64,000 bases of DNA from an uncultured Planctomycetota bacterium (GCA_963823665.1 CAWGMQ010000004.1:2688001-2752000); one strand, 5' to 3'. Counted from the stretch's first letter, positions 15,611 to 55,800 are shown. Numbers and translations: made by a program. The notes: generated by a model from the letters alone, not told the origin.

Positions 15611-15721
15611 CGTGAGACGCCGTGCGCCGTTGTGGGTGGATGCGATTGCGGAATTTCGCGCCGGTCACTCGCGCGACGGGGGACGGCCGGTGAATTCAAC
15701 GGGCCGCGGCGAGGAGTCGTG

Positions 15722-33400: not shown

Positions 33401-34305
33401 ATTGCATGCCGCTCGGAGCCTTCGGTCAGCTCCCTCCGGACCTCGCGCTCCATGCTGGGCACGATCAGCCGGTCCAAGGCGTCGATCGCCGCGCCACGAA
33501 AGAGCTCGGCGTGGGGATGGGCGTCCAGCGGAAGCTGTGCGAACAGAGCGGCCTCGACCTCGGGCCGCGGCAGTTCCAGCCGCACCTTGAGCGGGCCTTC
33601 CTTGTCGCCCCGGTTGATCGCAAGCACCCGGTGCGGTGGGATCTGGGCCACCGGCTCGGAATAGTCGAAATAATCCCGGTACTCGAGCCCTTGGCCTTCG
33701 GGAATCTCGGCCTTCGAGGTGACGATCTTGCCGGTTTTCCAGATGAGCCGGCGGATCGCATCGCGCACGGCCGCCATTTCACTGATGGCCTCGGCAAGGA
33801 TGTGACCGACACCCTCGAGCACTTTTTCGGTCGATTCCAACCCCTTTTCCGCGTTGACGAATTCCTGGGCTGCGGCCGCCAGCTCAGTGAGAGTCTCGTC
33901 ACGCGTCCAGATCCGGAACGCCAGAGGCTCGAGGCCCTTTTCCCGGGCGTCGGAGGCCTTGCTTCGCTTCTTGGGCTTGAACGGAAGATAGAGATCCTCG
34001 AGCCGCTTGGGATTGTCGGCCGCGCGAATCGCAGCGGCCAGATCCGGTGTGAGCTTTCCCTGGGCCTCGATCGTCTTCAGGATCGTCTCTTTACGCTCAG
34101 CAAGGTCGCGCAGGCGCTGGACGCGAGCCTGGATCTCGCCGACGACCACCTCGTTGAGGTTGCCGGTCGCCTCTTTGCGATATCGCGTGATGAAGGGAAC
34201 CGTGTTCCCGTCATCCAGGAGTCCAACGACGCTCTCGACCTGTGAGCGCCGAATTTGCAGATCCTGCGCGATACGACCCAGGTCCACCTGAATCGGGTTG
34301 GCCAT
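30440..34305 (-). CDS. tex: Tex-family transcription accessory protein (YqgF, HhH, S1) with large low-complexity insertion; frameshift near 32888
   Basis: GNTVPFITRYRKE, LEDLYLPFKPK, IDPGFRTGCK, AIGNGTACRETE, VNEAGASVYS, IGRRLQDPL, IGVGLYQHD, FGAFVDIG..GLVHISQL. Confidence 0.9.
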
Positions 34306-34457
34306 GTAGATTCGACTCGGCACCTGGTGAGACAAGAGCGGCGGCGACATGTCCGTCCGATACGAGGCATCGCCAGAAACTCTCACCATATCGGCGAGGC
34401 GCTGGCATTGCTCAAGGTGAGCGCACGTAGACACTTACCCATCAAAAGAGTTCGGTC

Positions 34458-35345: not shown

Positions 35346-38300
35346 TCACACGCTTTCGGATCCGGACGTCACGCTGAATGCTCGGCCCACTTGGTGGTTC
35401 TGCCCCGGCACATCGAATCGCGGTGGCCCCGGAGTCGGCTCGAGCCCCGCTTGATCTGTTCGGATGTACCCTCCCAGGCTCCAGACCAGCTCGCAGTTGT
35501 GCTGAAGGTCGAGCATGGTCAGGGTCTGGACCGCGCGGAGAACCAGGATCTGGTCGCTCCACAGGTCGGTTCGCAAGAGGACGTCGCGCATCCTAGACTG
35601 CACGACAGCCCATGGATCGCGTGAGCCCTGGCCCAGCACCACTTTGACCCAGCCGCGGGTCATTCGGCGGTGCCGCTTGAGGTAGGCTGTGATTCGCCGG
35701 CGGGAGGCTGCGTCGTAGGATGGAAAGCACGGTAGCTCGAAGAGGTCGGAAAGCGGCCGCCTTTTTCGCCGATGTACGGGATGCCAGAGTGTGCGGATAT
35801 TGACGATCGGATCGGGCAGCCTGGGCGGGAGCTTCCTCACGTCTTGCCGCCCATCGCAGGAGTACTCCATAACGGCCTTGAGCCCCTCGAGCGACAAGGC
35901 AAGGGTCGAGATATCGTCGTGGTCAAGGATGCAGGCTGCCACCAGCGCGCGCAGGGCCTCGCCGCCGCGATTGGCCAGGTAGGGAATCTCGTCGGCGAGA
36001 TAACCGGGGAGCAAGTCGAACGTCCAGCCGAAGCGATGCACCCAGCGGTGCACCCATTCCAGCCGCTTCTGATGCTGCCGGCGAAACTGCTCGGCGATGA
36101 TGCGGTCCTGCCGTGTCGCCCCGATGTAGTCGAGATCGGCCTCCATGAGCAGCTCGCCCGCGAGGCTTTCGGGCGCGGTCGGAAGCTTGAGCCCCATGTA
36201 CTCGACGTCGAAGCGGGCTCGCAGCCAGAGCGAGCCCATGAAGACAGGCTTGCGCATGCGATGGATCTTGCGCAAGGCGGCCCAGTAGGCATCAGCCGGA
36301 ACAACCTGCTGGCGGTCGACCTGAGGATGCAGGATCTCGTGCACGACACGCAGAATGCTGCGGAAACCGGCCGCGACGGCCTTTCCCAGCACGGCGAGGA
36401 GGACGAGAGGAAGCAGCACGATACGCCCGCCGGAGAGGTGGGCCTGATAGAATCCGAACGGGTTGAACGTGCGAGCAGTCAAGGGCAGCTCGTGCAGTGG
36501 AAAACTGCGGAAAGCCCGCCGGACATTCTGCTGCCGGTCGCGCCTCACAAGCTCGGCAACCTGCGGCCCGAAGCGAGCGTGAATCTCACAATCGCGCTCG
36601 GGGTCGTCTCCGAGAAAGTCGACGGCGGTGAACTCGACGGTCTCCAGAAAGGCCCCGGCCTCTTTGCGGAGGGTGCCTTCCGTTCCCACACGCGCGGTTT
36701 CACTTGCTCCAACCCGATGGATAGAGCTACCTTCCGGTACCGTATGGGGCGTCGAGAGCTCGGGCACCCATACCTCATCCGGGTCGATCTTCAGCCGGTC
36801 CGCCAGCCAGTTCCGGAACTTCTGGCGTACCGAAGGGGGCGAGCAGGCCAGGCGATCGAGCGGGATGGCGTGGCGGTTGTAGTCGAGCAAGAGCAGGGCC
36901 GTTTCCTGCACGAGCATTCGCGTGATGTAGTTGAACCAGAGATACGGGCCGCCGAAAAGGCCGCCGGCGCGGCTCAAGTCGAGCCGGTCGATGGTGCGGC
37001 CTTCTCGCAGCAAGTGCCCCAGGTGACTTCGCCGCAGGTTGCTGAGAGCCAGGTTCCCCAGGAGCTGAACCGAAGCCTTGGTGTCGCTGCGGTGGAGCGG
37101 CGATCCGTCGAGATAGTCCTGGTAGAGCAAGCGAACGTTCCGCAGGAACGCCAGCTCGCGGTTCTCGAACCAGGCAGGTTCGCTGCCTCCGGCTTCCTCG
37201 TCATGACCGGAGCCGTTGCGATGGATGGGTCTGTCGTCCGACTGCCGCAACAGCAGCTCGGGATTGATCACTCGCTGGCTGAGAAACTGCGAATCGTGGT
37301 CGCGACGGCGGGATTTGAGGGCCTTCGTGTGAGTGGCAAATTGGGCCTCGACCACCCGCTCGCAAAAATCAGCCGACTGATTGGCGATCTTGCGAAACCA
37401 CGCGCCGAGCAGCCAGAAAACCAGACAGATCACCCCGAGGATGATCACCGGCCAACCCAGGAGGGTCTGCACCTTGTCGACGACCTTCACGAACGGCGTG
37501 AAGAACGGCAGCGAGTTCACGATCAGGTAAAGAAAGAGAAACGCCGATCCCAGCCAGAGCAATCGCTTGGCGGGTGTCCGCGTGGCGTTGACGATCGTCG
37601 CACCCAGCCGGTCCAGGAAAACGGGAGGCGACAGCGTGCCGTGCAGATCGGCGAAGAAGTAGACGACGTCGAGGCCGCGCTGCATTGAGTGGCCGAGATA
37701 ATTGGCAGCCAGCGCCACGGCTTCTGCCGGGCTTTTTTCGCGGTAGGCAACCAGTCTGCGCACGAACGGCAGGCGTCGCACCAGGGGAAGATCGAAGAGG
37801 CGGACATAGCGATCGATTGCTTTCACGGCCGCGGGCCCGATCTGGTCGAGTAGCCGTTCCGGGGTCATCTGGATCAGGCGCTCGACGACCGCCTCGACGG
37901 GTATTTCGCGGCTCGTTGTTTCCGGAACGTCATCGGCCAGGGCAGGATCCGGCAAGCTCTCGACCCGGCGCTCCAGATCGAAGAGCACCCGCTCAGAAAA
38001 CCTGCGAGCTTGGTCGCGGTCCAGCCGCGCCACCGCGCTAACGCGGGCGTGCTCCAGCTCGCTGCGGAGAGCGATCAAGCGATGGCGCTCGCTTGATTCC
38101 GGTTTCTGGGCGTGCAGCGGCTCGAATAGCACGATGTTGCGGTTGAGGAGTTTGCCCATGCGGCGCACCAGACGATCGAGGAGGCGCAGCAGCACGAGCC
38201 CGACCCGCGCGAGCCTCAAGACCGGCAGGATCACCCGCAGAAACCGGAACGACCGGGCCACCCGTGCGATCCGGGCCGGCCCCCACCACGCCGAGCCGAG

Positions 38301-39947
38301 GCCGTCGGGCGCGCTCAGCAGGTCGCCCATTCGTTCCAGCTCGATCTGATGTGCGACGAATCCGAAAGGCAGCGAGGCCAGCAGATCGATCAGGACGTGG
38401 CGGAGCAAATAGCTGGTCCGGTGCGGCGCCAGCGCGAGCTTGAGCGTGAATTCGAACAGGAACACCGAGCAAACCGCCAGATCGGCCCAGGCGAAGAACA
38501 CGTGCTGTGCAGCCGAGAGCCCGCGTGGGCGCGCGCGCTCCAGCACCACCTCGGCCGCGATCAGACCGAATAGCACGAGGATGAGCACGAGCACGGTGTT
38601 TTCGAGAGTCGCGACGAATCGGCGTCCGAAGATCTTCTCCATGCGCAGCGTGAGCAGTTTCTCCTGCCAGTCGCGCTCCACCTGGCGGCTGGCGCGGCGG
38701 ACCGACCGCGCCTGCGCTCGCATCCGCTTGCGGGCACGCTCATCGCGCTGCTCCGCCAGAGTCCGCGCCGCCGCCTCGAGATCGCTTTCGGTGGTCGCCT
38801 GTGCCCCGGGCTCACCGACGGGCTCTATACTCACGGCATCCGGAATTGGACCCGGCGATGGGAGGTAGATCTCCTCCGGAAAATCAAGGGCGGCGTGGCG
38901 GCATTGCTCTGCTCGCGGCCACTCGAGGCAAGCTTCCGAGAGCCGCGCCAGGTCGTCGCCGATCAGCTTGAGCCGATCAACCGCGCGACCAAGGCTGATA
39001 TCTTCGAGGAAGGCCATCGTTTCCCCCGCCTCGTCGAGCGCTAGCTGGACGACGCGCTCACCGGGGGCAACCCGGTCGCAGAGGGTAAGCGATGCCATTT
39101 GCTCTCTGGCGGCGAGGGCGAGCTCGTCCCGACGCCGGTCCAGCCTGTCGATCCAATCGGCGCGCTGGCGCGCCAGGCGTGCGTGGAATGCGTCCTGTTC
39201 ACTGCCGTGATCGGTTGCCGTCGCTTGCGCCCGTAATCGCGTCAGGTGAAACCGATGTCCCCAGAGGGCCTCGGGCGTGGAACCCTCGACGGGCCAGGCA
39301 AGCTCGCGCACGATCCGTCGCGAAAGCAAGATCGCCTGCAAGCGCTCGCAGCCTTGGTGGAGCGGGAGATGACTCGGGTCGGGATCATGCCCTGACGCGA
39401 CGTGCAGCGAGGCGCTCAAACGAGCGAGCTCGACGTCGAGCCACGCCGTTGCCGGATCGGGCGCTTCACGATCGAGCCGATCGATGACGGCGCTATGCCA
39501 CTCGAGCTCGTTGCGCAGTCCCTCGATCGCGAGTGCTTTGTGCAGCGGATCCGGGCCGACGGCGGCCGTGATCGACCGAACTGCCGATTTGATTTCGGCC
39601 AGCCATTCTCTGGACCGGCGGGCGAGGAGCTCGTGGCGCTCGTTGCCGGGGACGAGCGTGGTCATCTGGGAGTCGGCGACTTCCTGGAGCTCGGCGAGAG
39701 CAGAGAGCATTTCGCGGCGAGTGTTCTCGATTTCTTCACTCTGGACCGACGAATCAAGGCTTCGGCGCAGGATCAATCCAGTACCGATCAGATCGAGTCG
39801 GTTCGCCAGGCTCTCGGGTCGGGAATCGATGGGCGATTCACAGAGCTTCCTCGCCCGCTCGCACCACTCGGCCGCCTGCGCCTTGATGTCATCCAATCCA
39901 CTGCTCCGTTGCTCTGGCCGACCGGTGATTGAACACCGGCGGCGCAT
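35346..39947 (-). CDS. Large membrane protein with ion-transport (S1-S4 voltage-sensor-like) segment
   Basis: Uninterrupted 1533-aa ORF; ADLAVCSVFLFEFTLKL, IDLLASLPF, RIARVARSFRFLRVILPVLRLARV; start uncertain. Confidence 0.75.
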   Translation of the reverse strand: MRRRCSITGRPEQRSSGLDDIKAQAAEWCERARKLCESPIDSRPESLANRLDLIGTGLILRRSLDSSVQSEEIENTRREMLSALAELQEVADSQMTTLVPGNERHELLARRSREWLAEIKSAVRSITAAVGPDPLHKALAIEGLRNELEWHSAVIDRLDREAPDPATAWLDVELARLSASLHVASGHDPDPSHLPLHQGCERLQAILLSRRIVRELAWPVEGSTPEALWGHRFHLTRLRAQATATDHGSEQDAFHARLARQRADWIDRLDRRRDELALAAREQMASLTLCDRVAPGERVVQLALDEAGETMAFLEDISLGRAVDRLKLIGDDLARLSEACLEWPRAEQCRHAALDFPEEIYLPSPGPIPDAVSIEPVGEPGAQATTESDLEAAARTLAEQRDERARKRMRAQARSVRRASRQVERDWQEKLLTLRMEKIFGRRFVATLENTVLVLILVLFGLIAAEVVLERARPRGLSAAQHVFFAWADLAVCSVFLFEFTLKLALAPHRTSYLLRHVLIDLLASLPFGFVAHQIELERMGDLLSAPDGLGSAWWGPARIARVARSFRFLRVILPVLRLARVGLVLLRLLDRLVRRMGKLLNRNIVLFEPLHAQKPESSERHRLIALRSELEHARVSAVARLDRDQARRFSERVLFDLERRVESLPDPALADDVPETTSREIPVEAVVERLIQMTPERLLDQIGPAAVKAIDRYVRLFDLPLVRRLPFVRRLVAYREKSPAEAVALAANYLGHSMQRGLDVVYFFADLHGTLSPPVFLDRLGATIVNATRTPAKRLLWLGSAFLFLYLIVNSLPFFTPFVKVVDKVQTLLGWPVIILGVICLVFWLLGAWFRKIANQSADFCERVVEAQFATHTKALKSRRRDHDSQFLSQRVINPELLLRQSDDRPIHRNGSGHDEEAGGSEPAWFENRELAFLRNVRLLYQDYLDGSPLHRSDTKASVQLLGNLALSNLRRSHLGHLLREGRTIDRLDLSRAGGLFGGPYLWFNYITRMLVQETALLLLDYNRHAIPLDRLACSPPSVRQKFRNWLADRLKIDPDEVWVPELSTPHTVPEGSSIHRVGASETARVGTEGTLRKEAGAFLETVEFTAVDFLGDDPERDCEIHARFGPQVAELVRRDRQQNVRRAFRSFPLHELPLTARTFNPFGFYQAHLSGGRIVLLPLVLLAVLGKAVAAGFRSILRVVHEILHPQVDRQQVVPADAYWAALRKIHRMRKPVFMGSLWLRARFDVEYMGLKLPTAPESLAGELLMEADLDYIGATRQDRIIAEQFRRQHQKRLEWVHRWVHRFGWTFDLLPGYLADEIPYLANRGGEALRALVAACILDHDDISTLALSLEGLKAVMEYSCDGRQDVRKLPPRLPDPIVNIRTLWHPVHRRKRRPLSDLFELPCFPSYDAASRRRITAYLKRHRRMTRGWVKVVLGQGSRDPWAVVQSRMRDVLLRTDLWSDQILVLRAVQTLTMLDLQHNCELVWSLGGYIRTDQAGLEPTPGPPRFDVPGQNHQVGRAFSVTSGSESV

Positions 39948-40132
39948 CGGTTCGAATTCTACTCGTTTGCCGCGCGCTCTTCCACGAACGGCACGGACGC
40001 TGGCGGCGAAGTTGGCTTGTCGATGGGTGGAACATGGCTTAATCTGCTGCTCTCGTGGATCGTCGTGAATCTACGGACGGGTGCCGGCCACGTCTGTCGA
40101 CGCAGTCAAACACCGACCATGGAAGGAAGCGA

Positions 40133-41512
40133 ATGCCGACCCCGGAATTGATGAGTGACGAGCTCGACCCCGGCTCCGGCGAGGGGAAATGGAATTCCTG
40201 GCTCAACAAGCTCGGCCTGCACCGGAGCGAGCTGCGCGCGTGGGCGATGTACGACTGGGCGAATTCGGCAGTGATGACCACCATCATCACCGCGGTTTTT
40301 CCCATCTACTACGAGAAGGTCGCCTGCAAGGGAGTGGTCGGGGTCGAGGAAGCCACGCAACGGTATGCAACCGCCACCGTGATCGGCATGCTGATCATCG
40401 CGCTCTTGTCACCCGTGCTGGGAACGATTGCCGACTTGAAGGGCGACAAGAAGAAAATGCTGGGCGGATTCATGGCTCTGGGGGTTTCCTCGGTCGCCGG
40501 GATGTTCTTCATCTACCAGGGACAATGGCTGCTGGCTTCCGTCCTTTTCATCCTCGCCAATATCGGCGTGAACGGCAGCTTCGTCTTCTACGACGCTTTG
40601 CTGCCGCACGTTGCGGGCAAAGACGAGATCGACCGGGTTTCGACGGCTGGCTACGCCTTTGGCTACATCGGCGGCGGCACTCTGCTGGCGATCAACCTCG
40701 CGTGGATCATGAAGCCCGCCTGGTTCGGTCTACCGACGGTGTCAGATACTTCGGCGCAGGGCACACTGCCCACGCGTCTGGCATTCCTTTCGGTCGCTGT
40801 CTGGTGGCTGGTTTTCTCGATCCCGCTGTTCCGCCGGGTGCACGAGCCAGCGGCCTCCGCCGCCGGGATTACCGAACGATTTCCGGTGCGGGCTGCATTC
40901 GCGCGCCTGTGGGAAACAGCCCGCGGCTTGGGCTCGCACCGTCAGGCCTTCCTGATGCTGCTCGCTTTCCTGATCTATAACGACGGCATCGGCACGATCA
41001 TCCGCATGGCGTCGAGCTATGGCGCGGTGATCGGCATCGATACGACGGTCATGATCGCCTCGATCGTGATCGTGCAATTCGTCGGGATTCCGTTCGCCTT
41101 CCTCTTTGGAATGCTGGCCCAGCGCATCGGCGCCAAGCGCTCGATCGGAGTCGGGCTGGTCGCCTACATGGCGATCTGCGTCCTCGGCTATTTCATGACG
41201 AGCGCGATCCACTTCGTGGCGCTGGCGGCCCTGGTGGGGGCGGTGCAGGGGGGAACGCAAGCCCTGAGCCGCTCGCTCTTCGCCAGCATGATTCCGCGCG
41301 ACAAGTCGGGCGAATTCTTCGGGTTCTTCGGTGTCGCTGAGAAATTCGCCGGGATCCTCGGGCCGGCCGTGTTTTCGGTCGCACCCAGCCGCACTGCCAT
41401 TCTGGCCGTGATCGCATTCTTCATTGTCGGTGGCTTGATGTTGTTCTTCGTCGACGTCGCCGCCGGCCAGCGCAAGGCGCGGGCCGACGAGGTTGGGCCA
41501 CTCTTCGAGTGA
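40133..41512 (+). CDS. MFS transporter, UMF1/Atg22-like
   Basis: AWAMYDWANS, FYDALLP, RVSTAGYAFGYIGG, YNDGIGT, QALSRSLF, EFFGF. Confidence 0.9.
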   Translation: MPTPELMSDELDPGSGEGKWNSWLNKLGLHRSELRAWAMYDWANSAVMTTIITAVFPIYYEKVACKGVVGVEEATQRYATATVIGMLIIALLSPVLGTIADLKGDKKKMLGGFMALGVSSVAGMFFIYQGQWLLASVLFILANIGVNGSFVFYDALLPHVAGKDEIDRVSTAGYAFGYIGGGTLLAINLAWIMKPAWFGLPTVSDTSAQGTLPTRLAFLSVAVWWLVFSIPLFRRVHEPAASAAGITERFPVRAAFARLWETARGLGSHRQAFLMLLAFLIYNDGIGTIIRMASSYGAVIGIDTTVMIASIVIVQFVGIPFAFLFGMLAQRIGAKRSIGVGLVAYMAICVLGYFMTSAIHFVALAALVGAVQGGTQALSRSLFASMIPRDKSGEFFGFFGVAEKFAGILGPAVFSVAPSRTAILAVIAFFIVGGLMLFFVDVAAGQRKARADEVGPLFE

Positions 41513-41521
41513 GGCGTCAGG

Positions 41522-42376
41522 TCAGGCTCTCGTCAAACGCTTCTGCCAGTGGGAAATGCTAATGGCCCAGGAAACGCCCAGGTAGAACGCGGGATAACAC
41601 AAGGATATCCAAGCCCATTGCAGGGTCGATGCGCTCGAGACGGTCTGCGTCTCTCCCGGAAGCTTCCAGATCAGCCAGAAGAACAGAACCGTCCAGGGAA
41701 TGCCGAGCACGGTTGCCAGCCGATTGATCCTGCCCGGCTGTGACGGGTAGAGGTGGCGCGTGGGCACGAAGGTCAGTATCGCCAGCACGACGATGACGCC
41801 GAGCGACGGCCATGGACCTAGCGGCAGCATATAGAGGTAAAAAGCGACGACGTTCCAGAGGGAGGGGAAGCCGAGGAAATAGCCATCGTCGGTCTTGGCC
41901 TGCACCTGGCAAAAACCGTACGCGCTGGCGACGAGCGGCAGGAACAACCAGGGTTCCTGACCGGGCGGCAAGATTCCGGCCCGCCAGATCAGAAGCAGTG
42001 GAAGAAACGTGTAGGTGAGAAAGTCGACCAGGTCATCGAGCCTGCGGCCGTCGAAGCTTGGAACGACTTCCTTGATTCGCACCTTGCGCGCCAGAAAGCC
42101 GTCGGTCGAATCGACAATGGTCGCGGCGGCCATCAGCAGAAACGACCATCGGAACGCTGCGGGACCCCCGTCGACCAAAAGCACGGCGATCAGGCCGGCC
42201 GCGATCAGCCCGAGTGCCGTATAGGCATGCACGCACCATCCCAGGAAGCGCTCGACCGTTCCTGCCGGTCTGGCGGGCCGGGGATGGGCGGGTTTCTGCC
42301 GTTTCCGGACCTGAAGCTTGACCAGCGTCGCCGACCGTCTGGCGATCCTTCTTAGCCCGGATTCATTGGTTCTCAT
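41522..42376 (-). CDS. pcs: Phosphatidylcholine synthase-like CDP-alcohol phosphatidyltransferase
   Basis: VHAYTALG, VDSTDGFLARKVRIKEVVPSFDGRRLDDLVDFLTY, YFLGFPSLWN. Confidence 0.82.
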   Translation of the reverse strand: MRTNESGLRRIARRSATLVKLQVRKRQKPAHPRPARPAGTVERFLGWCVHAYTALGLIAAGLIAVLLVDGGPAAFRWSFLLMAAATIVDSTDGFLARKVRIKEVVPSFDGRRLDDLVDFLTYTFLPLLLIWRAGILPPGQEPWLFLPLVASAYGFCQVQAKTDDGYFLGFPSLWNVVAFYLYMLPLGPWPSLGVIVVLAILTFVPTRHLYPSQPGRINRLATVLGIPWTVLFFWLIWKLPGETQTVSSASTLQWAWISLCYPAFYLGVSWAISISHWQKRLTRA

Positions 42377-44013
42377 GATCGAGCCGCTTCTGGTTCACCC
42401 GATGCGTACAGGCCGATCCAGCCGTTTTCAACCGTTTGATTCTTCGATTCCGCGGGATTCTGGTCAAGGTCTTCTGCTGCAGCGTGCACTGCCACGATGC
42501 CGGTCCGCTTTCGTTGATAGAGAACATAATACGCAGCACCGGCTGCAACGAGCGAGAGGGTTGCCAGGGGCGCCGCAAACCGGCCCAAGGGATGCTCCCC
42601 GTAAATCTCCAAGCGCGGCCAGCTCATATTGATCACGACGAACAGCCCCCAAAGCGCGGCGGCGACGTTGACCGGCAAACCAAATCGCCCCAGAGAGAAA
42701 TACGCCCGCGGCGCGGCGGCATTGGGTCCATTGCGTGGAGCATCTTGGCGATGCAGGGACGAGCCCGGTGCAGGCGCAGGTGATTTTCGCCGCGATATCA
42801 AGAGTGGAATGGTGACCATCAGATATGCCAGGTTGGCCCAGATGACGGCCATCGAACAGAGCAATTCGATCACGTTGGGAAGGCTCGAGTTCACAATCAG
42901 GATCGCGCCGGCCAGGAAACCGATCACGAGCGCAGGGACACCCGGCGCCCGGGTGCGCGGCGAGACGTGCGAAAGCACGTCGGCAAAGGGAAGGTTCCGA
43001 TCGCGCGCCATCGCGAACATCAGCCGGACTGCTGCGGCGTGTACGGCCAGCGCGCACACGAAGACGGCGAAGATCACTTCAACCAGGAGCAGGACACCGA
43101 GCTTATCTCCGAGGACATTTCTGACCAGAAACGGCAGGCCGCCCGAGATCGTGCCGAGCTCCTCGAGAGCGGGGTCGCTGACGGCGAGAATGCCGAAGAG
43201 AATGAGCAGCGCGCCCGCGAGCCCGGCGGCGGCGAGTGCTCGCAGGATCGCCCAGGGCGCGCGCCGGCGCGGGTCGCCGGTCTCCTCGGCGAGGGCCCCT
43301 GCGGTGTCGAACCCGTACATCACGTACGACGCCATGAGGGCAGCCGCCAGGAAAGGGCCGAGGTAGCCGAAGGGTTGTCCTTGTCCTTTCCCCATCGTGT
43401 CGAACAGGATCACCGGCCCGCGGCGAACTCTGAGCGCGAGCAGCACGATCAAGAGTCCCACTCCGCAAAGCTCGGCGATCACGCCGACGTTGTTGATTCG
43501 CGCGAGATGCCGCACTCCGATCGAATTAATCAGTGTCGAGACTGCGATCAGCGCGCAGCCCAGCAAGACCGCGTTCAAGGCCGCGCTCGAGCGATCGCCG
43601 GGATCACCGACGAGCTGAAACGCAGGCGCGATCTGAGGCAAGGTCGCCTGCAAGGCCAGGGCGACGGCAGCCAGGCTGATGACCGATCCCGAGAGGTACA
43701 CCCAGCCCGCCATCCAGCCGATCGAACGCGAGCTGAGCCTGGCGGACCATTGATAGACACCGCCCGAGAGGGGATATCTTGCCGCGAGCTCCGCGAAACA
43801 GAGAGCGACTGCGCCCTGGCCAAGGAAGACGGCCGGCCAGGTCCAGTAAAAGGCCGGCCCCCCCGCGCGGTATCCCAGATAGAACGTCTGGAAGACGCCC
43901 GTCAGGACCGAGATGTACGAAAACCCCGCGGCAAATGACGAAAAGCTGCCGAGCGTCCGGTCGAGAACCTGCTTGTAGCCGAAGGTGGCGAGGTCTCGAG
44001 TGTCGTCCGACAT
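42373..44013 (-). CDS. APC-family amino acid/amine permease
   Basis: GYKQVLDR.LG.FSSFA.GFSYIS, FAELAARYPLSGGVYQWS, YGFDTAGALAEET; stop overlaps pcs start. Confidence 0.9.
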   Translation of the reverse strand: MSDDTRDLATFGYKQVLDRTLGSFSSFAAGFSYISVLTGVFQTFYLGYRAGGPAFYWTWPAVFLGQGAVALCFAELAARYPLSGGVYQWSARLSSRSIGWMAGWVYLSGSVISLAAVALALQATLPQIAPAFQLVGDPGDRSSAALNAVLLGCALIAVSTLINSIGVRHLARINNVGVIAELCGVGLLIVLLALRVRRGPVILFDTMGKGQGQPFGYLGPFLAAALMASYVMYGFDTAGALAEETGDPRRRAPWAILRALAAAGLAGALLILFGILAVSDPALEELGTISGGLPFLVRNVLGDKLGVLLLVEVIFAVFVCALAVHAAAVRLMFAMARDRNLPFADVLSHVSPRTRAPGVPALVIGFLAGAILIVNSSLPNVIELLCSMAVIWANLAYLMVTIPLLISRRKSPAPAPGSSLHRQDAPRNGPNAAAPRAYFSLGRFGLPVNVAAALWGLFVVINMSWPRLEIYGEHPLGRFAAPLATLSLVAAGAAYYVLYQRKRTGIVAVHAAAEDLDQNPAESKNQTVENGWIGLYASGEPEAARS

Positions 44014-44021
44014 GCCGGGGA

Positions 44022-44832
44022 TCAGCCTTTTCTGGTCGCCAGGAAATTGCCCCACTTCATGTCGCCGTTCTTGCAGAAGCCGACTTTCATCTCCCAGCGA
44101 TCGACCAGGTACTTCAAGTCGGCCTCGGAGAACGCCGCAAGGAACTCGCCCGAATGATCGACAAGTCGAGCGGTTTCACTGTTCAAAATCTCGACGAATC
44201 GCGCAGTCGCGTCGTCGACGACCACGTCGCTAAAACCCGCGGCCTCGAGCAATCGGCCGTATTGCGCGGGCTCGACGACGTTATAGCCGGTGGATTCGAT
44301 GTATTTCTCGAACTCCGGCGATGCGGGTGTCTTTCCCCGAGCGTAATCCGTGATCACGAGCCGTCCGCCGGGAGCCGAGAGGTCAAAAAGCCGCGAAAAC
44401 AGCCGGCCCTTGTCGGGAATATGCATGAACGCATCGCGGCTCCAGATGATGTCGAATGGCTCCGCGAACTTCTCTTCGAGCACGTCTCCCAGCACGAACT
44501 TGCACCGAGTCATTCATTCCGAGTTCCGCCGCGCGCTCGTGGGCCACGGCAACCATTTCTTCCGCCAGGTCGATGCCGATGACCTTGGCACCATACGTCT
44601 TTGCCAGGTGAAATGCCGCTCCTCCGATGCCGCTGCCGACGTCGAGCACGCGAGCGCCTGCTCGCAATGACGGGCTCAGCCGGGCGCACAGGTCGTCGGT
44701 CGTCCGGGCGCCGCCGGTGCTGATGTAACCCGCGCCGAAGATCATCTCGTATCTCAAGATGCTGCTGCGGCTGTACTGGCCATGATTGTCGAACTTGGGT
44801 CGGGCGGCTGGCGCCGCGGGGGTCGTCGTCAT
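44022..44832 (-). CDS. SAM-dependent phosphoethanolamine N-methyltransferase-like protein, frameshift near 44505
   Basis: DNHGQYSRSSILRYEMIFGAGYISTGG, VLDVGSGIGG, FDIIWSRDAFMHIPDK, PGGRLVITDY, WGNFLA: matches plant PEAMT C-domain / nematode PMT-2 / Plasmodium PMT pattern. Confidence 0.82.
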
Positions 44833-44920
44833 GTGGTCTCTCAAATTGAAAACCGGCCAGCTCGCTGGCGGATGATCTCGGTTCCGCAACTACCAAAGAC
44901 GGCGGGCCGGGATGCTTATT

Positions 44921-45922
44921 CTACTCGAGAGCCGCCCGCGCGGCACGATAAGCCTCGAGATTCTCGCGGGCGTAGCTCGCGTAGTCGAACTCGATGTCGG
45001 ACGCGACCGTCTGGATGGTCGACCAGAGCGTTTCGCGCAGAAGTGCGACAACCCGGAAGATCTGGAACTCAGCCAGGGCCGCCGTGGGCAACGGGCCCGG
45101 ATAGGCATCGACCAAGGCACGCTGTGCCGCGGCGCTCATTCCCGCAGCGGTCGTCGCATGCGCCAGATCGAAAAGTGGATGGCCCACGCCCGCGTATTCC
45201 CAGTCGAGCAGCCAGAACCGTCGGCCGTCGTCAATCACGTTCGCCGGCATCATGTCGTTGTGACAGAGGACCGGGCGAAACGGCGCGATCCGCCGTGATA
45301 GAGCGGTGATATCTTCAATAATCTGATTGATGTCGTGCGGAAGTGACGCTTTGAGCCGCGCCGCGGTGTGCGCATAGGTGCGCACGGTCTGAAACGCGCA
45401 GAAATAGAGAACCTCGCCCGTCAAGACGGCCCAACCTTCGTGCAGGTGGCCAAGCAGGGCCGCCAGGCGAGGGAGCATGGCCGGCTCGCGAATTGTGACT
45501 GGATCAAGTGTTCGACCGTCGACGAACCGGGTCACCAGGAGCCCGCGCTCGTGATGAATGATCTCGGGCGCCAGACCGCGAAGGCTGGCGGCCTGGTGAC
45601 ACACCATTTCGTTCCGCCGGTCGACCCCAACGAGCGGGAGCTCATGGCAGATGCGAGCAAAATACGATTGCCCTCCCGTTCGAACTGCGAAGTTGCGGTT
45701 CGAGAGCCCGCCCGAGATCGGCTCGATCGAGAACGCACCGCGCACGAGACCAAGCTTCCGAAGCCGATCGATCAGCTCTCGCTCCGGGCGATTGCGCCGA
45801 CGCCTGAAAGGAAGCCGCTGTACACCCAGCGCACGCTTCCAGTCGAGCTTTAGCTTGGCGACCGGACCGCCGTGGTTCCGGTCCGGCGCAAACAGCATCG
45901 ATTCGTGTTCGTTGGAAAACAC
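44921..45922 (-). CDS. Choline/ethanolamine kinase (APH-like) family
   Basis: ISGGLSNRNF, GVDRRNE, LCHNDMMPAN, LLDWEYAG.GHPLFDLA; start uncertain. Confidence 0.85.
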   Translation of the reverse strand: MFSNEHESMLFAPDRNHGGPVAKLKLDWKRALGVQRLPFRRRRNRPERELIDRLRKLGLVRGAFSIEPISGGLSNRNFAVRTGGQSYFARICHELPLVGVDRRNEMVCHQAASLRGLAPEIIHHERGLLVTRFVDGRTLDPVTIREPAMLPRLAALLGHLHEGWAVLTGEVLYFCAFQTVRTYAHTAARLKASLPHDINQIIEDITALSRRIAPFRPVLCHNDMMPANVIDDGRRFWLLDWEYAGVGHPLFDLAHATTAAGMSAAAQRALVDAYPGPLPTAALAEFQIFRVVALLRETLWSTIQTVASDIEFDYASYARENLEAYRAARAALE

Positions 45923-46866: not shown

Positions 46867-49800
46867 TTACCGCCGGCCCATCCGCTCAAGCGCCCTGCCA
46901 GCCATCGCACCCGCCAGAGCAGGGGACCCAGACCGCGATTTCCTCGCATCCACATCTGCCACGATCGACGGCGCCTGAAAGACAAACGGCGGCGACTTGA
47001 GTCGCACACGCACACCCGCCGAGCCGCCAATCGGCGGCAGAATCGTCCGTGCCGTTCCTCCCCGGCCTCGGCTGACCGAGCCGCTCAATATCGTCTTCCT
47101 GGCCACCGTGCCGATCAAATCCAGTTCGGCCGCATTTCCGGACGCGCTGCGAAACATCTCCATGAACCCGCCTTTGGTCAACTGGAGCGACACGACATTT
47201 CGCGAAGAGTCCGTATAGACGAGCCGTTTCCCAGCCCCAAACGTGACGTAGAGCGGAGTGCCGACAATCCCGTTGAAACCGATCAGCAAGTTGTTCGACG
47301 AGTCTGTCAATCCATTGTTCAAAAGCGTGCTCGTCTGCCCGTCAACCGTCACCTGCCAGAAGGTGTTGGGCGATAAGGGAACACTCGGGGTAATCGTCAC
47401 AGTCTGCGACGCCGCGTTGTAGACCGCCGAGCTCAGGCTGACGTAATTTCCGGCGCTGCTGCCGAAAGTTCCATTCGCTCCGGCCGAGTATGCGAAGTAA
47501 CCGAAGCTGGCCAGATTCTGCGCTCGCACGGCAACCAGCGGCTTGCTGAAGCCAAGCACGATTGCCGAGATCGCCTGGCCGCTCATGATCAACTGCTCGG
47601 AGGTCAGCCTGGGGGCGACCAGGTTGATCGGCGGTGGTGGTGGCGGGGGCGGTGCGGGTAGCTCGCTGATCGAGAGCGTCGCGGTGCCGATCGCCCCGAG
47701 CGTGGCCCCGTCGCCAGGCTGGCTGAGCGTCAAATTGACCGTCGTCGTTGCGGCCGACTGACTGAGATTGGGAAGGATCGTGATCGGAAAGGTCTGCAAC
47801 GAGTAAGGCTGGCCGGGCAGAAACGTCAATATTCCCGAAGCAGCAGCATATTGCTTGCCCGCGATCGCGGTGCCGTTGCTGGTGGCGTACGAGACCGTCA
47901 CGAGCGCGCTCAAGTTGCCCACGCGCTCGACCTGAATGTTTGCCACGCCCGCCGCGGAATTGACGGCATACTGCGCCGTCGTGAACTGCACGCTCACGGG
48001 CTGTGCAGTCAGGTCGGCTGCGAATTCCGAGGTATCGCCTGTGGCTAGATTTGTTGCGGTGGCGCTGACCCAGGTGTTCGCCGGAATGCCGTTTTGCGGT
48101 GACAGCAAGGCCACGGCCAATCCATTCGCGCCGGTCGTGACTGCCTGAGATCCCAGCAGGGTTTGCCCCTGGCCGTAACCGGTCGGATCGGGCGTCGTGT
48201 TGCTGAAGAACTGGATGAGGAACGACGTATTCGGGAGGCTGCTCAAGCTTGCCTGCGCTGCACCTGCTGCTCCGCCGACGACGGCAGTCATCACCGGCGT
48301 GTTCTCTAGATCGTTGGGCCCGACCCGCACACCCGGGCCATTTGGAGTGACACCACTGGGAGGGTCGCCCGCCGCGACCAGATCGATGCCCAGGTGTCCG
48401 TTCGAGAAGATGCTGTTTGAGAGGATCGAGTCGCCCGTTCCCGACTGCACGCTCACCCCTGCCGCCACGCTAAACGCAATCGTGTTCCCAGCTCCCGTCG
48501 CCGTTCCCCCGATCGTATTGTTCGAGGCGCCATTGCTCACGATCACTCCGTTGATCTCGTTGCCCAGATTCAGTGTGCCGCTCGTATCGGTTCCAACGTA
48601 GTTTCCTTCGATGACGTTGAGCTCGGCGGTCGAGCCGTCGAGGCGAATTCCCCACTGGTTGGCGGAGATCACGTTGCGCGCCGCGGAGCTCGTGCCACCC
48701 ACCGTGTTGCCAAAGGCACCTTCGATCAGGACCCCCTCGCCCGAGTTGCCCAGCTCGGCCGTGCCCGACTTGTCGGTGCCGACCAGGTTGCCCTCGATCA
48801 GGTTCTGGGTCGACGTGGCGCCGTCGATCTCGATGCCCACGAGGTTGCCCGAAATCACTTGCTCACTCTGGCTGTCTCCTTCGATCGTGTTGCCGGACGC
48901 GTTGTCGATCTGGATGCCGCTTTGGGCATTGCCCAGGTCGGCAGTGCCCGTGGAATCGGTGCCGATCAAGTTACCCTGGACGGTCACGCCCTGGGCCAAC
49001 GCACCGGAGATCAGGACGCCGATCAGGTTGTCCGAGATGACATTGCCGGTGCCGATCAGCGTGCCGGGCGAGTAGTCGGCCACACCGGCGCCCGACATTG
49101 CCGAGCGCCGCCGTGCCGTCCGCGGTCAAACCGATGATGTCGTTCTCGATCGAGTTACCTGTCGCGTTCGCGCCCGTCACGTAAACGCCAGCCCCTTTGT
49201 TCGAGGAGATCACGTTGCCATCGGCCGACGCGGGGCCGCCGACCATGTTGTCCGGCGCGTCGTCGATGCGCACGCCGTCGGCCGAATTGCCGGGCTGTCC
49301 GTTGCCGAATGCGTAGCCGCCTCCGGGTGCCGCGCCGATGTAGTTGGCCTCGACAAGATTACTCGTCGCACCGACTCCGATGATATGCACGCCAAATCCG
49401 TGATTCGCCGAAATGACGTTGCCCGACCCCGAGGCAGCGCCGCCGATGACATTGCTTGATGAATAGACGATTCCCGATGGATTGCCGGCGCTTCCCGACG
49501 ACTCGATGGCGACTCCGTCCGAACCATTGCCGGCTGTGAAATAGAGCCCGCTCGAGGCGGGCCCGATTACCCCGATCTCATTGCCAAGAATCTGGTTGCC
49601 CGATGCCCCGGGTATCAGCAAGACGCCTTGCCCCCCGTTGCCGCTGATCACGTTTGCGTCCTGGGGCTTGGTGCCGCCTACCGTCGCGTTGGCGGAGCCG
49701 AGTGAGATCCCTTCCTGAGTGTTGCCTAGCCCTCCTAGCGCCACGTTGTTCGGCGACGGGCAGCGCGATACCCGTCAGCGGATCGACGGGATAGACCAGA

Positions 49801-52800
49801 AACTCTCCGATCGCGTTGCCTTGGATCAGATCGCCTACGTTGTCCGGATCAGGAACGGAAACACCGATGCCGAAACCCTCGATGGCGAGTCCGCGAATCA
49901 CACTCTGCGAAGTGTCCAGAACCAGTCCGGTTGACCCGCCGGTCTGGTTGCCGTTCAAAATCACCCGGATTTGCGCATTGTCTCCATCGATTGCTGCGGT
50001 CGTATTGGTGACCGATGATATCAGCATTGGGTTACCGATCAGTGCTCCGCCGGCAGTGACCGTCTGGACATGTATGTTCGCGTTCGACCCCCCGGTGAGA
50101 TCGTTGGAGGCGATGAGATTCGGAATGGCTTCGTCCGCGTCGGCTCCCTGAAATGCTATCGCGAACGTGCCCGGAAGTGACTCCGTGACTGAAACGTTGG
50201 CATTTCCGAGCACAAGGGCGAGCGCCTGCTGGACCTCGTCGGCCGACGCCGAATAGGAAATGGGAGGCGTCGTGCCTACTGGCAGAGGCGCCAATGTGGA
50301 GAGGGTGAAGGTGCCGCCGGTGGGCTCTCCGCCGATGGTCAGATCCTGGACCGCCGAGCTGACCTGGTCGGGGTAGCGGTAAGGCACCGCGACATTGGCC
50401 TGGGTGAACCCGTCAATCGACACCGGATGCGTGATCGCTGGTAGCGGGCTGTCGAGCGAGATCGTCCAGATCTGGTTGACCGGGTCGAATCCGGGAACGG
50501 GAATGTTCTCGTTCCCGGCTGTCGACGCGGGGATCTCGAAGACGATGTCGTCAACTCCGGGATTGGGGTCGTCGTTTGCGGCGGTGATCGCGTCGCGCAG
50601 GGTTCCCGGGCCTGAATCACCCGTGTTGGTGACGACGAAGGTGAGCGGATTTCCGGTGGAGTTGTTGATGATGGTGAGAGTGGCGAGAGCGATCGAGCCC
50701 AGGGTGGCGCCGCCAGCGGGCTGGCTCAAGGTCAGGTTGACGGTGGAAAAAGTGGTTGGGCGGTTGGGGTTGGGCAGGATTGGGATCGAGAAGGTTGCGT
50801 CGGTCTGATCGGGCGCGAACGAGACGATGCCGGAGACGGCGGAGTAATCCTGTCCGGCAACCGCTGAGCCGCTGGAGGTGGCATAGCCGATCGAGACGGC
50901 CACGGCGAGGTTGCCGGAGCGCTGGATGTCGATCGAGGCTGTTCCAGCCGTGGACTGGACGGTGGGAGCGGCGTTCGCGAACGAGATGGTGACGGCTTGC
51001 GCAGCGACTGCGTTGGAGAATCCGGAGGAATCGCCGGTGGATTGGTTGGTCGCGGTGAGCGTCATGAAGGTGCCGACGGCCAGGCCGCTCGCGACGGTGA
51101 AGTTGATGGTCGCGGTGCCAGTGGCGCCGGTTGTCACAACGGTTGAGCCCAAGAACGTCTGCCCCTGGCCCACTCCAGACGGGTCTGGAATCGCGCTGCT
51201 GAAAAACTGGATCAGAAAGCTCGTATCAGCGACGCTCGTGAGCGAGCCCTGGACGTTACTCCCGGTGCCGCCACCCGCGACTCCGGTGACGGTTGGAGCG
51301 CTTTGCATGTGGTTGCCATTTTCGAGCGCGATTCCTTGCTGTCCGTTGAACGCGATGCCGTTCGAGAGGATTGAATCGCCCGTTCCCGATTCGACGAGCA
51401 CGCCCGCTTCAACGTTAAAGCCGATCACATTTCCCTGTCCGCCGCCTGTGCCGCCGATCGTGTTGTTCGAGGCGTTTGAGCTAAGGAGGACTCCGTTGAT
51501 TTCATTGCCAAGCGGGGCAGTGCCGCTCGAATCCGTGCCGACGTAGTTCCCTTCAATCAAGTTGCCGCTCGCGGCGGCGCCGTCGATTTGAATGCCACAC
51601 TGATTGGCGGAAATCACGTTGCGTGCCGCCGCCGTGGTGCCGCCGACCGTGTTGTTCGGGGCCCCTTCGATCAAGATGCCTTGGTTCGAGTTGCCAAGGT
51701 CGGCCGTGCCCGACTTGTTGGTGCCGATCAGGTTGCCCTCAATCAGGTTCCCAGTCGACGTGGCGCCGTCGATCTCGATTCCCGCGAGGTTGCCGGAAAT
51801 CACCTGCACTCCCAGGTTGTCGGCTTCAATCGTGTTCCCGGCCGAGTTGACAATTTGAATTCCGTCCTCGGCATTACCCAGATCGGCGATTCCTGTGGAA
51901 TCCGTGCCGATCAGGTTGTCTCGAACAATCACGCCGGTTGCCGTTGCACCCGAGATCAAGATTCCTGTCAGGTTGTCGGATATGACGTTGCCCGGTCCGA
52001 TCAGCGTTCCGGGCGAATAGTCGGCCACGCCGGCGCCGACGTTGCCCAGCACGGCGCTGCCGTCGGCGGTCAGTCCGATGATGTTGTTTTCAATCGAGTT
52101 GCCCAGACCATCGGCCCCCGTCACATAGACTCCAGCTCCTTTGTTCGACGAGATCACGTTGCCGTCGGAGTTTGCGGGCCCACCGACCTGATTGTCCGGC
52201 GCGTCGTCGATCCGCACCCCGTCGAGTGAATTGCCCGGCTGGCCGTTGCCGAAGACGTAGCCGCCTCCGGGGGCCGCCCCGATGTAATTTGCCTCGACGA
52301 GATTTCGCGTGGCACCGACGCCGACCAGGAGAACTCCGTAACCGTGATTGGCTGAAATGACATTGCCCGCGCCGGAGGCGGCGCCACCGATGACATTGCT
52401 CGACGCATAGACGATGCCGGCAGGGTTGGCAGCCGAGCCCGTCGATTCGACGTCGACCCCGTCTGCGCCGTTGCCGTCGGTGAAATAAACGCCACTCGCC
52501 GCGGGCCCGATGACCCCAATCTGGTTTCCGAGCACCTGATTTCCCGATGCGCCAGGCTCGATCAAGACACCTTGCGCACCGTTGCCGCCGATCACGTTGG
52601 CGTCTTGGGGCTCAGTGCCGCCGACCGTCGCGTTGGCGCAGCCGAGCAGAATCCCTTCCTGAGTGTTTCCCTGCCCGGCCAGAGCGACCGAGTTGGGCGG
52701 CGGAAGCGCGGTGCCCGCGAGCGGGTCGACCGGGTAGACCAGGTATTCTCCGATCGCGTTTCCCTGGATCAGATCGCCGACATTCAAAGGCCCTGGAATC

Positions 52801-55800
52801 GAGACACCGACACCGAATCCCTCGATGGCCAGACCGCGAATGAGGCTCTCCGAAGTGTCGAGCTCGAGCCCGGTCGCGCCGCCGGTCTGGCTTCCGTCCA
52901 GGATCACGCGAATCTGGGCATTATTGCCGTCGATGGCAGCGGTTGTATCGGGGACCGACGAGATCAACGTTGGAGAGCCGATCGGTACGCCGCCGATCGT
53001 GACGGTCTCGATCTGGATGGTCGGCGTGAGTCCTCCGGATAGGTCATTCGCGGCGATCAGATTGGGAATCGCTTCGTCCGCATCGGCGCCCTGAAACGTG
53101 ATCGCGAGCGTACCCGGCGTCGTCTGGATGACCGAGACACTGCTTGACCCCAGGATCGTGTCGAGCGCTTGCTGCACTTGCGCGGCGGTCGCGGTGAACG
53201 GGATCGGCGGTGTTGTGCCGATGGGCAGAGGCGCCAGCGTCGAGAGGCTGAACGTGCCGCCGGTCGGTTGCCCGCCGATGGTCAGATCTTGCGTTGCCGA
53301 GGTGACTTGATCCGGGTACCGGTAGGGCACCGCGATATTGGCCTCGGTGAACCCGTCGATCGAGACCGGATGGGTGATCGCTGGTAGCGGGCTGTCGAGC
53401 GAGATCGTCCAGACCTGGTTGACGGGGTCGAATCCGGGAACGGGAATGTTCTCGTTCCCGGCCGTCGACGCGGGGATCTCGAAGACGATGTCGTCAACTC
53501 CGGGATTGGGATCGTTGTTTGCGGCGCTGATCGCGTCGCGCAGGGTTCCCGGGCCTGAATCACCCGTGTTGGTGACGACGAAGGTGAGCGGATTTCCGGT
53601 GGAGTTGTTGATGATGGTGAGAGTGGCGAGAGCGATCGAGCCCAGGGTGGCGCCGCCGGCAGGCAGGCTCAAGGTCAGGTTGACGGTGGAAAAAGTGGTT
53701 GGGCGGTTGGGGTTGGGCAGGATTGGGATCGAGAAGGTTGCGTCGGTCTGATCGGGCGCGAACGTGACGACGCCGGAGACAGCAGAGTAATCCTGTCCGG
53801 CCACCGCGGAGCCGTTCGAGGTGGCATAGCCGATCGAGACGGCCACGGCGAGGTTGCCGGAGCGCTGGATGTCGATCGAGGCCGAGCCGGCGGTGGATTG
53901 GACCGTGGGAGCGGCGTTCGCGAACGAGATGGTGACGGCCTGGGCAGCGACTGCGTTGGAGAATCCGGAGGAATCGCCGGTGGATTGGTTGGTCGCGGTG
54001 AGCGTCATGAAGGTGCCGACGGCCAGGCCGCTCGCGACGGTGAAGTTGATGGTCGCGGTGCCACCGGCGCCGGTTGTCACGACGGTTGATCCCAAGAACG
54101 TCTGCCCCTGGCCCACTCCGGATGGATCCGCGATCAGGCTGCTAAAGAACTGGATGAGGAAGCTGGTATCGGGCAGGCTCGCCAGCGAGCCGACGACGTT
54201 ACTCCCCGTTCCCCCGCCGGCGACGCCGGTCACGGTGGGCGCAGCTTGTAGATCGTTGCCGCTTTCCAGTGCAATCCCCTGCTGTCCGTTCGACACGATG
54301 CTGTTCGATAGGATCGAGTCACCGGTTCCTGACTCGACCAGGACCCCAGCCTGGACGTTGTAAGCGATCACATTTCCTTGACCTCCGCCCGTGCCGCCGA
54401 TCGTGTTGTTGGATGCGCTATTCGTCAGGAGAATTCCGTTGATCTCGTTCCCAAGCGGGTTATTGCTGGTGATGTCCGTGCCAACGTAATTTCCTTCGAT
54501 CAAGTTGCCAGTGGCGGTGGCGCCGTCGATCTGAATGCCCCACTGATTGGCGGAAATCAAATTGCGTGCCGCTGCGGTCGTGCCCCCGACCGTGTTATTG
54601 ACAGCGCCTTCGATCAAGATTCCCTGGTTCGAGTTGCCCCGGTCGGCTGTGCCCGACTTGTCGGTGCCGATCAAGTTGTCCTGAATCAGGTTTTCGGTCG
54701 ATGTCACGCCGTCGATTTCAATTCCAGCCAGGTTGCCTGAAATCACCTGTGTGCCGAGGTTGTCGCCTTCGATTGTGTTTCCCGAGGAGTTAACGATCTG
54801 AATTCCGTCCTCGGTGTTTCCCAGGTCGCCGCTCCCCGTAGAATCGGTGCCGATCAAGTTGTCGCGAACGATCACACCAGTCGCCGTGGCTCCCGAGATC
54901 AAGATGCCGATCAGGTTGTCGGATATCACGTTGCCAGGGCCGATCGATGTGCCGGGAGAAAAGTTGGCGACGCCCGCGCCGTCGTTGCCCAGCACGGCTG
55001 TTCCGGCCGAGGTGAGCCCGATGATGTTGTTCTCGACGGAATTGCCGGCCGCGTCCGCGCCGGTGACGTAAACCCCGGCCCCCTGGTTCGAGGAAATCAC
55101 GTTGCCGTCAGAGGCGACGGGGCCGCCAATCTGGTTGTCGGGCGCATCGTCCAGTCGCACGCCGTCGGCCGAGTTTCCTGGATTGCCGGTTCCGAAGACG
55201 TAGCCGCCCCCGGGAGCAATGCCGATATAGTTGGCTTCGACCAGGTTCCGCGTCGCGCCCACGCCGCTCAAGTGAACGCCATACCCGTTGTTGACCGAGA
55301 TCACATTTCCCGAGCCTGCAACCGCACCGCCGATCACGTTGCTCGAGGAATAGACGATGCCCGACGGGTCGGCCGCCGTGCCCGAGGACTGGATCCACAC
55401 CCCGTCAGCGCCGTTGCCGAGCTGGAAATAAAGCCCGTTCGTCGACGGCCCGATGACTCCGATCTGGTTTCCGAGAATCTGATTGCCGGAGCTTCCCGGC
55501 ATCATCAAGATTCCTTGCTCACCATTGCCGGAAATCACGTTGTTCTCATCCGGGTTATAGCCGCCCACCGTCGCGTTGGCCGAGTCGAGCAGGATTCCTT
55601 CCTGGCTGTTTCCCGCCCCGGCCAGAGTCACCGTGGCCGGCGCAGGCAGCGGGTCACCGGTGCCCTGGTCGACGGGGTAAGCCAGATAGGGGCCGATGAA
55701 GTTGCCCTGGATGATATCGCCCACGTCGGTCGGCTGCGGAATCGAGATACCGATGCCGAAACCCTCGATGGCGAGGCCGCGGATGACGCTCTGCGACGTG

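Follow-up and report, generated by a model that had tools for sequence, protein, structure and literature searches.

The bacterial routes to phosphatidylcholine (PC) described in the literature covered here comprise PmtA methylation, the Pcs pathway with outside choline, acylation and the CDP-choline pathway of Treponema. These sources further state that bacteria are generally unable to make choline de novo (PMC11409717, 2024) and that known Pcs routes need choline from outside (PMC10434233, PMC11409717), and they place the phosphoethanolamine N-methyltransferases (PMTs) in plants, nematodes and Plasmodium (bioRxiv 2024.11.28.625837). Here we describe a locus of an uncultured Planctomycetota bacterium that joins a PMT to a Pcs-type enzyme, at positions 41522..45922 of a 64,000-nt window (GCA_963823665.1 CAWGMQ010000004.1:2688001-2752000), the window being the whole stretch of DNA analyzed. 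The reading that we favor, with some reserve, is that Isosphaeraceae use this combination to assemble choline by way of a soluble phospho-base for passage into PC, and would thus make their own choline.

The locus is a minus-strand block of four genes encoding a kinase, a PMT, an APC (amino acid–polyamine–organocation) permease and a Pcs-type enzyme, separated in that order by gaps of 88 and 8 bp, with the last two genes overlapping by 4 nt (ATGA). The features, with the kinase start taken from the related locus L034, are the following.

44921..45922, minus strand: choline/ethanolamine kinase-family gene (PF01633; HND and DWEY motifs intact), likely start ATG at 45898
44022..44832, minus strand: single-domain PMT, 269 amino acids if read through one frame break
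44499..44502, minus strand: extra base splitting the PMT frame, from alignment with four related loci
42373..44013, minus strand: APC-family permease (PF13520), next to Pcs
41522..42376, minus strand: Pcs-type CDP-alcohol phosphotransferase, from Pcs models and motif
40055..41512, plus strand: ATG22-like major facilitator superfamily (MFS) transporter (PF11700), convergent to Pcs

An earlier sequence-only reading had reported four packed minus-strand genes here, and all four are called in that place. It had also noted the lack of a phosphatase and of a LicC-type cytidylyltransferase in the cluster; domain searches of the locus found no phosphatase or cytidylyltransferase gene among the four, and we agree that a pathway step is missing from the cluster, dephosphorylation being without an assigned gene. 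Promoter and terminator scans of the locus gave nothing useful. Among the 74 clustered loci, 27 have the ATG22-like gene in convergent orientation to Pcs, and it also adjoins Pcs in L308, whose genome gave no PMT match.

The grouping was surveyed in 121 Isosphaeraceae genomes; because these are kin, no Fisher statistics were used. PMT was found in 77 of them, Pcs in 86 (one by a weak partial match) and the permease in 72. A PF01633 kinase was found in 56, and 48 of these qualify for the kinase ortholog at a threshold of at least 42% identity. Pcs occurs in 75 of the 77 PMT genomes, the two exceptions being 61% and 76% complete, which bears out the association of PMT with Pcs. The gene grouping goes beyond chance, as 62 of the 75 genomes of the family that have both PMT and Pcs show the two no more than 3.5 kb apart. 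The place given to the kinase in the pathway stands only in part: the gene is confirmed, but it is the least constant of the four, with an ortholog in 45 of the 77 PMT genomes and within 2.7 kb of PMT in 23 of those 45; 19 genomes show both the PMT–Pcs and the PMT–kinase link. Of the 48 genomes with the kinase ortholog, 45 carry PMT; the kinase is dispensable. Split operons among the 74 clustered loci break into kinase–PMT and permease–Pcs pieces, and Paludisphaera soli has the order PMT–permease–Pcs (L047). The locus is characteristic of Isosphaeraceae, a family of soil and peat bacteria: none of 400 other planctomycete genomes sampled, with six candidates scored per genome, gave a PMT match.

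Pcs orthologs at eight loci of other planctomycetes neighbor a sodium symporter (four), an APC permease (two), a betaine/choline-type ABC transporter (one) or no importer (one). Because Pcs with various importers occurs without PMT, importer plus Pcs reads as ordinary choline salvage, with PMT as an add-on. The permease, whose best NCBIfam model is TIGR03428 (under its cut-off), adjoins Pcs without PMT at L069–L071, L306 and L307, and PMT directly precedes Pcs without the permease at L027, L028, L029, L078, L310 and L311. Permease and Pcs are thus a separable choline-salvage module, working alone on outside choline. Of the import and subsequent phosphorylation first proposed for this locus, the permease is present, but it goes with Pcs even where PMT was not found; because of that pairing it more likely feeds a choline-type substrate straight to Pcs. 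The permease likely imports choline or related amino alcohols.

An intact relative of the window PMT (P0002) was compared with solved structures and matched 11 PMT sequences at E values from 1.7e-65 to 8.5e-40, the next family following at 1e-21. Its top match was the second domain of Arabidopsis PMT2 (E 1.7e-65), and nematode PMT-2 also scored above the single-domain Plasmodium PMT. The sarcosine enzyme 2o57 gave E 3e-5 for the C-terminal half of the window PMT, the sarcosine/dimethylglycine model NF041675 gave 31.5 and 32.1 bits for the two PMT halves against a cut-off of 550, and the read-through PMT matched no model at E 1e-25. These scores point to the PMT family rather than to the sarcosine/dimethylglycine type, as had been proposed, and both signatures cited for that proposal (QY..ILRYE.IFG.G..STGG and SRD..HI.DK) are present. 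The enzyme label is not new, since JGI labels many relatives phosphoethanolamine N-methyltransferase; NCBI names some relatives Isosphaeraceae.

Conservation of the pocket was counted in the 120 best of 863 matches, with residue roles from a study of the Plasmodium enzyme PfPMT, which assigns catalytic or phosphate-binding roles to Tyr19, His132, Tyr27, Tyr160, Tyr175, Tyr181 and Lys247 (PMC6705855). The catalytic pair is present as Y20 (PfPMT Tyr19) in 118 of 120 relatives and H137 (PfPMT His132) in 120 of 120, the S-adenosylmethionine (SAM) motif D64-G66-G68 in 120 of 120, and the phosphate ligands Tyr27, Tyr160, Tyr175, Tyr181 and Lys247 (PfPMT numbering) in 118–120 of 120. The phosphate ligand Arg179 of PfPMT is replaced by Thr in 119 of 120, and an arginine is gained at position 245 in 120 of 120, where eukaryotic enzymes have Gly. 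Arg245 stands four residues before the phosphate-binding Lys249 in the same predicted helix (alignment-based model, predicted local distance difference test score 95.6). Among 150 distant representatives, arginine occupies either the 179 or the 245 position in a mutually exclusive manner, the lone row with both being a garbled frame, and such coupled switches arise separately a few times in the tree (P0157, P0174 and P0224). From this pattern we infer that the pocket of the arginine-swapped PMT would still bind phosphate, and we class the enzyme as a variant within the PMT family.

In a FastTree phylogeny of 121 rows, which excluded rows with fewer than 225 aligned residues and three garbled rows and has no true root, the Isosphaeraceae PMTs form one clade (support 99) outside a large Arg179 clade of 74 rows (98). 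The earlier description 'eukaryote-type' is hence true of the family, but the Isosphaeraceae enzymes are a clade of their own, and with this position outside the big group of Arg179 enzymes, an origin by transfer from eukaryotes is not established. No second PMT-like gene above 50 bits was found in this genome, a phage collection gave no PMT match, and no PMT fusions with kinase or phosphatase were found in a search of longer proteins, a weak test whose six matches were two-domain PMTs and apparent read-through artefacts. A sister clade including P0210 and P0241 has an altered pocket (Arg at Gln18, often with Tyr/Phe/Cys changes) and contains proteins fused with a cytidylyltransferase or with a class V aminotransferase; its members are possibly, as a guess, aminoethylphosphonate methyltransferases. 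A fusion of a PMT domain with a class II aldolase domain is seen in P0235, L185:1344-2984. A 38% relative is present in one Burkholderia plasmid record, and on a Burkholderia plasmid (L257:8971-10966) a PMT-like gene is followed by a TauD dioxygenase gene, divergent from a thiaminase/bacimethrin-type cluster; a 2011 review reportedly noted PMT homologs in some Burkholderia.

The Pcs-type gene scored 100–145 bits with five Pcs models, all under their cut-offs (145 against 300 for the best; the models are lineage-specific), compared to 25 bits for PssA, which puts Pcs ahead by 120 bits. The motif D-x2-DG-x2-AR-x12-G-x3-D-x3-D is present, with D89, D92, G93, A96, R97, G110, D114 and D118 in at least 95% of 47 aligned matches; the Pcs-type x12 spacing follows PMC3972451, in which the last part is printed GX3GX3D. 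The unusual Pcs specificity that had been suggested is not borne out, the motif being the ordinary Pcs one and no LicC-like gene being recognized in this genome. The kinase gave 82.7 bits with PF01633, above the cut-off, with 3dxq and the choline kinase 4r77 as best solved relatives; its Brenner and DWEY motifs are present. A second, distant choline kinase-family gene (~31–34% identity), unlinked to PMT, occurs in several genomes of the family, at L098, L099, L170 and L172–L176.

This genome is 92% complete, and genome-wide statements rest on family searches. Phosphatidylserine decarboxylase (Psd) had no match in it and is found in only 22 of the 77 PMT genomes, and no PssA-like gene was present among its four PF01066 matches (PgsA, this Pcs and two tied to sugar enzymes); the PmtA route would therefore lack its usual substrate here. 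No LicC-like gene was seen among six PF12804 and five PF01467 matches, judged by eye from sequence and neighbors, which read as MobA/MocA, sugar nucleotidyltransferase, CoaD, NadD and RfaE types. In S. acidiphila, also of the Isosphaeraceae, the major lipids given in one study are PC, trimethylornithine lipid (TMOL), PG (phosphatidylglycerol) and PA (phosphatidic acid), with no phosphatidylethanolamine (PE) listed among them; PC was measured there on medium with yeast extract, and gene knockout is possible in this organism (PMC12493201).

The gene families, their family-wide linkage and the conserved pocket residues are observed in the sequences, and a four-step route can be proposed on them. 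The source of phosphoethanolamine would be, for this genome, the kinase acting on ethanolamine and, for 14 relatives, a CobD-like enzyme (group A, below) acting on phosphoserine. PMT would then add three methyl groups from SAM to give phosphocholine. Pcs chemistry, as that of CDP-alcohol phosphotransferases, needs a free hydroxyl, and phosphocholine must therefore lose its phosphate; this third step, the weakest, may be performed by the kinase, which would hand the phosphate via ADP/ATP to ethanolamine as it comes in, or by a phosphatase not linked to the locus. Pcs would finally condense free choline with CDP-diacylglycerol. A kinase exchange of phosphocholine and ethanolamine for choline and phosphoethanolamine would close the four-gene pathway, pulled by PMT and Pcs, and by analogy with the choline kinase MthK (below) we prefer, for this genome, to regard the kinase as a possible ADP-dependent phosphotransferase.

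A pyridoxal phosphate (PLP) enzyme gene often stands divergent beside PMT in relatives, with the CobD threonine-phosphate decarboxylase as best model and Salmonella CobD as best solved relative. Such CobD-like genes fall into two groups and occur in 35 of the 121 family genomes. The TIGR01140 score does not separate them, since both group A (229–238 bits) and group B (236–257 bits) are below the cut-off of 290.55. Group A is a clade of its own (100/100) in 14 genomes, all 14 with PMT; it adjoins PMT in nine and the kinase in a tenth and, in the loci examined, is located by PMT or alone and not among cob genes. It retains HGG at the start, the PLP lysine and two C-terminal arginines, and one member belongs to Tundrisphaera lichenicola (P0320). 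Group B lies beside cobQ/cbiB in about half of 13 loci examined and is present in nine genomes without PMT. Both groups occur together in 7 of the 14 group A genomes (the combined A-and-B categories total nine, two of which have a distant kinase). From phosphoserine, a CobD-type reaction would yield exactly the PMT substrate, and the CobD-like enzyme SMUL_1544 is said to use serine phosphate and make ethanolamine phosphate; group A is likely a source of phosphoethanolamine from phosphoserine. Group II decarboxylases, present in three of five genomes, were rejected as an ethanolamine source, being DABA (2,4-diaminobutyrate)-decarboxylase-like and unlinked. The full de novo path, in which a duplicate of the vitamin B12 enzyme CobD would supply phosphoethanolamine by decarboxylating phosphoserine, the arginine-swapped PMT would methylate it to phosphocholine, the kinase would free choline by giving the phosphate to ethanolamine via ADP and Pcs would make PC without PE, is put forward tentatively, as a doubtful extension; if true, it would add to the bacterial PC routes and give soil and peat a bacterial supply of free choline.

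The frameshift that the sequence-only reading had suspected near ~44505 is confirmed as one extra base at ~44499 (placement ambiguous to 44502), compared with four related loci. The frame is intact in PMT relatives of 92–95% identity, and the break is probably an assembly error. The opposing explanation, that in this genome alone the break is real, PMT is a recent pseudogene and choline salvage remains, draws on the extra base being the sole frame-breaking difference from the closest relative within the four genes, outside a homopolymer and without read coverage at the site; a sequence-word search for datasets covering the break gave best matches sharing at most 0.13 of words, with no RNA dataset among the matches listed, and none of the contig pieces listed spans 44499. 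We hold it improbable, because both PMT halves show more silent than replacement codon differences from the closest locus (18/10 and 43/10), PMT frames are broken at scattered positions in 12 other loci, often with broken neighbors too, and the conserved tex gene of the window (30443-34323, minus strand) is likewise split in two, within its YqgF domain, likely by an assembly frame error. A programmed frameshift was rejected, as four nearby breaks differ in position and sign; the four nearest share no common motif.

Several observations weigh against a choline-building route ending in Pcs. No conserved fifth gene such as a phosphatase appears in the 74 clustered loci, the PHOSPHO1-like phosphatase family PF06888 had no match in this genome and none in five of five genomes searched, no CobD-like gene of either group was found in this genome, and its PMT gene is frameshifted in this assembly. 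Among the 39 PMT genomes with a completeness of at least 90%, 11 lack both a PF01633 kinase and CobD group A, and six more have a distant kinase only. Kinase phosphotransfer therefore cannot be general, and the pocket residues are unchanged in these genomes, for which no phosphoethanolamine source was recognized. In G077, group A is the sole CobD found although cobQ/cbiB are present, and it may therefore serve cobamide synthesis there. PC in yeast-extract cultures of S. acidiphila could come from choline salvage alone. Finally, the solved structures closest to PMT come from the second domain of plant PMTs and from nematode PMT-2, enzymes of the second and third methylation only. That ranking above the Plasmodium enzyme would fit a PMT that merely finishes imported mono- or dimethylethanolamine, phosphorylated and upgraded to phosphocholine, which would be improved salvage and not de novo choline; yet single-domain PfPMT, which carries out all three methylations, shares the listed residues. 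Pcs enzymes are stated to accept monomethylethanolamine and dimethylethanolamine in PMC11409717, and the permease is usually in the operon. We consider such partial methylation rather unlikely, because the decarboxylase adjoining PMT in nine genomes would yield unmethylated phosphoethanolamine, and because this genome shows no second PMT-like gene.

The loss of Arg179, a PMT–Pcs linkage tighter than that of PMT with the kinase, and the 11 near-complete genomes without a phosphoethanolamine source could instead suggest free ethanolamine, or a lipid head group made by Pcs, as the substrate of the methyltransferase, which would give choline or PC without a phospho-base or any dephosphorylation step and leave the kinase incidental. 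Lys249, the four tyrosines and the new Arg245 are nevertheless invariant, in kinase-less genomes as well, which argues for an anion in the pocket, and the linked kinase and CobD-like enzymes both come from families that make phospho-amino alcohols; there is little to commend this explanation. Use of CDP-choline and diacylglycerol by the Pcs-like enzyme, in the Kennedy manner of Treponema and with a cytidylyltransferase encoded at another place in the genome, would spend phosphocholine without wasting its phosphate and would fit the Pcs scores below curated cut-offs. We regard it as very unlikely, given the Pcs-type x12 motif, the Pcs orthologs of other planctomycetes, whose neighboring transporters are of three unrelated types (sodium symporter, betaine/choline-type ABC and APC), and the PF12804 and PF01467 matches without a LicC-like gene. 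Least plausible is a methyltransferase for osmolyte synthesis (glycine betaine from sarcosine or choline) with a secondary Pcs neighborhood. Other bacterial PMT–kinase pairs do lie near betaine transporters and GcvT-type oxidoreductases (L177, L179, L182 and L188), but the sarcosine/dimethylglycine model scores are far below cut-off, betA had no match at E 1e-30 in this genome and none over cut-off in five of five genomes, and the linkage in Isosphaeraceae is to Pcs.

Those pairs come from 80 fetched metagenome loci, 18 of which were examined: five unrelated loci (L177, L179, L180, L182 and L188) pair an Arg179-type PMT with an adjacent PF01633 kinase, in most cases along with genes for betaine transport or of GcvT type, and no Pcs was recognized at PMT–kinase pairs in the 18. 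They are perhaps a second bacterial use of phosphobase methylation, for betaine, and suggest that this chemistry is wider among bacteria than textbooks hold.

Elsewhere in the window, consecutive E2 (UQ_con), E1 (ThiF) and JAB genes with a small ORF upstream (14311-18384, plus strand) make up a bacterial ubiquitin-like conjugation cluster. A giant Calx-beta/beta-helix repeat protein lies in three pieces at 46867-55988 (minus strand), and several relatives have genes of this kind beside the kinase. A 1533-aa protein with a weak ion-transport domain match alone (35346-39947, minus strand) is conserved close to the operon, in 9 of the 74 loci.

Every part of the proposed route belongs to a known family; what appears to be new is the way the parts are combined, along with the arginine swap and the recruitment of the decarboxylase. 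We found no description of a bacterial PMT–Pcs route in the literature, covered as listings and abstract starts, with most subscription papers, including the main bacterial PC reviews, outside that coverage. A family-wide PMT–Pcs link would add a PC route and could explain PC as a major lipid of S. acidiphila without listed PE, and the arginine swap offers a natural probe of PMT phosphate binding.

Among described systems, the Treponema denticola CDP-choline pathway (LicA, LicC, CPT) also begins with a choline kinase but, according to PMC3972451, requires outside choline, LicC and CPT, whereas the window genome shows no LicC-like gene and its transferase is Pcs-type. MthK, the choline kinase of Eubacterium limosum, is described as moving phosphate from dimethylaminoethanol (DMAE)-phosphate to choline with catalytic ADP (PMC12155760); it would be comparable as a choline kinase paired with an enzyme altering methyl groups on a phospho-base, although its pathway strips methyl groups for energy. 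Group A resembles CobD and SMUL_1544 in its HGG start, PLP lysine and C-terminal arginines, but is a separate clade, away from cob genes and beside PMT. PfPMT, Arabidopsis PMT1/2 and nematode PMT-1/2 share with the window enzyme the family, the catalytic Tyr/His pair and most phosphate ligands; the eukaryotic phosphobase route, however, continues via CDP-choline, whereas the window PMT is bacterial, single-domain, without Arg179 and with Arg245, and is linked to Pcs with no cytidylyltransferase seen. PmtA likewise performs three SAM methylations of the ethanolamine nitrogen without outside choline, but on the lipid PE, in contrast to the soluble phospho-base pocket of this PMT in a genome without Psd or PssA matches. 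The Pcs pathway of Sinorhizobium, Agrobacterium, Legionella and Pseudomonas has the same type of motif and a neighboring importer; the window locus differs from it in linking a methyltransferase for head-group synthesis to Pcs.

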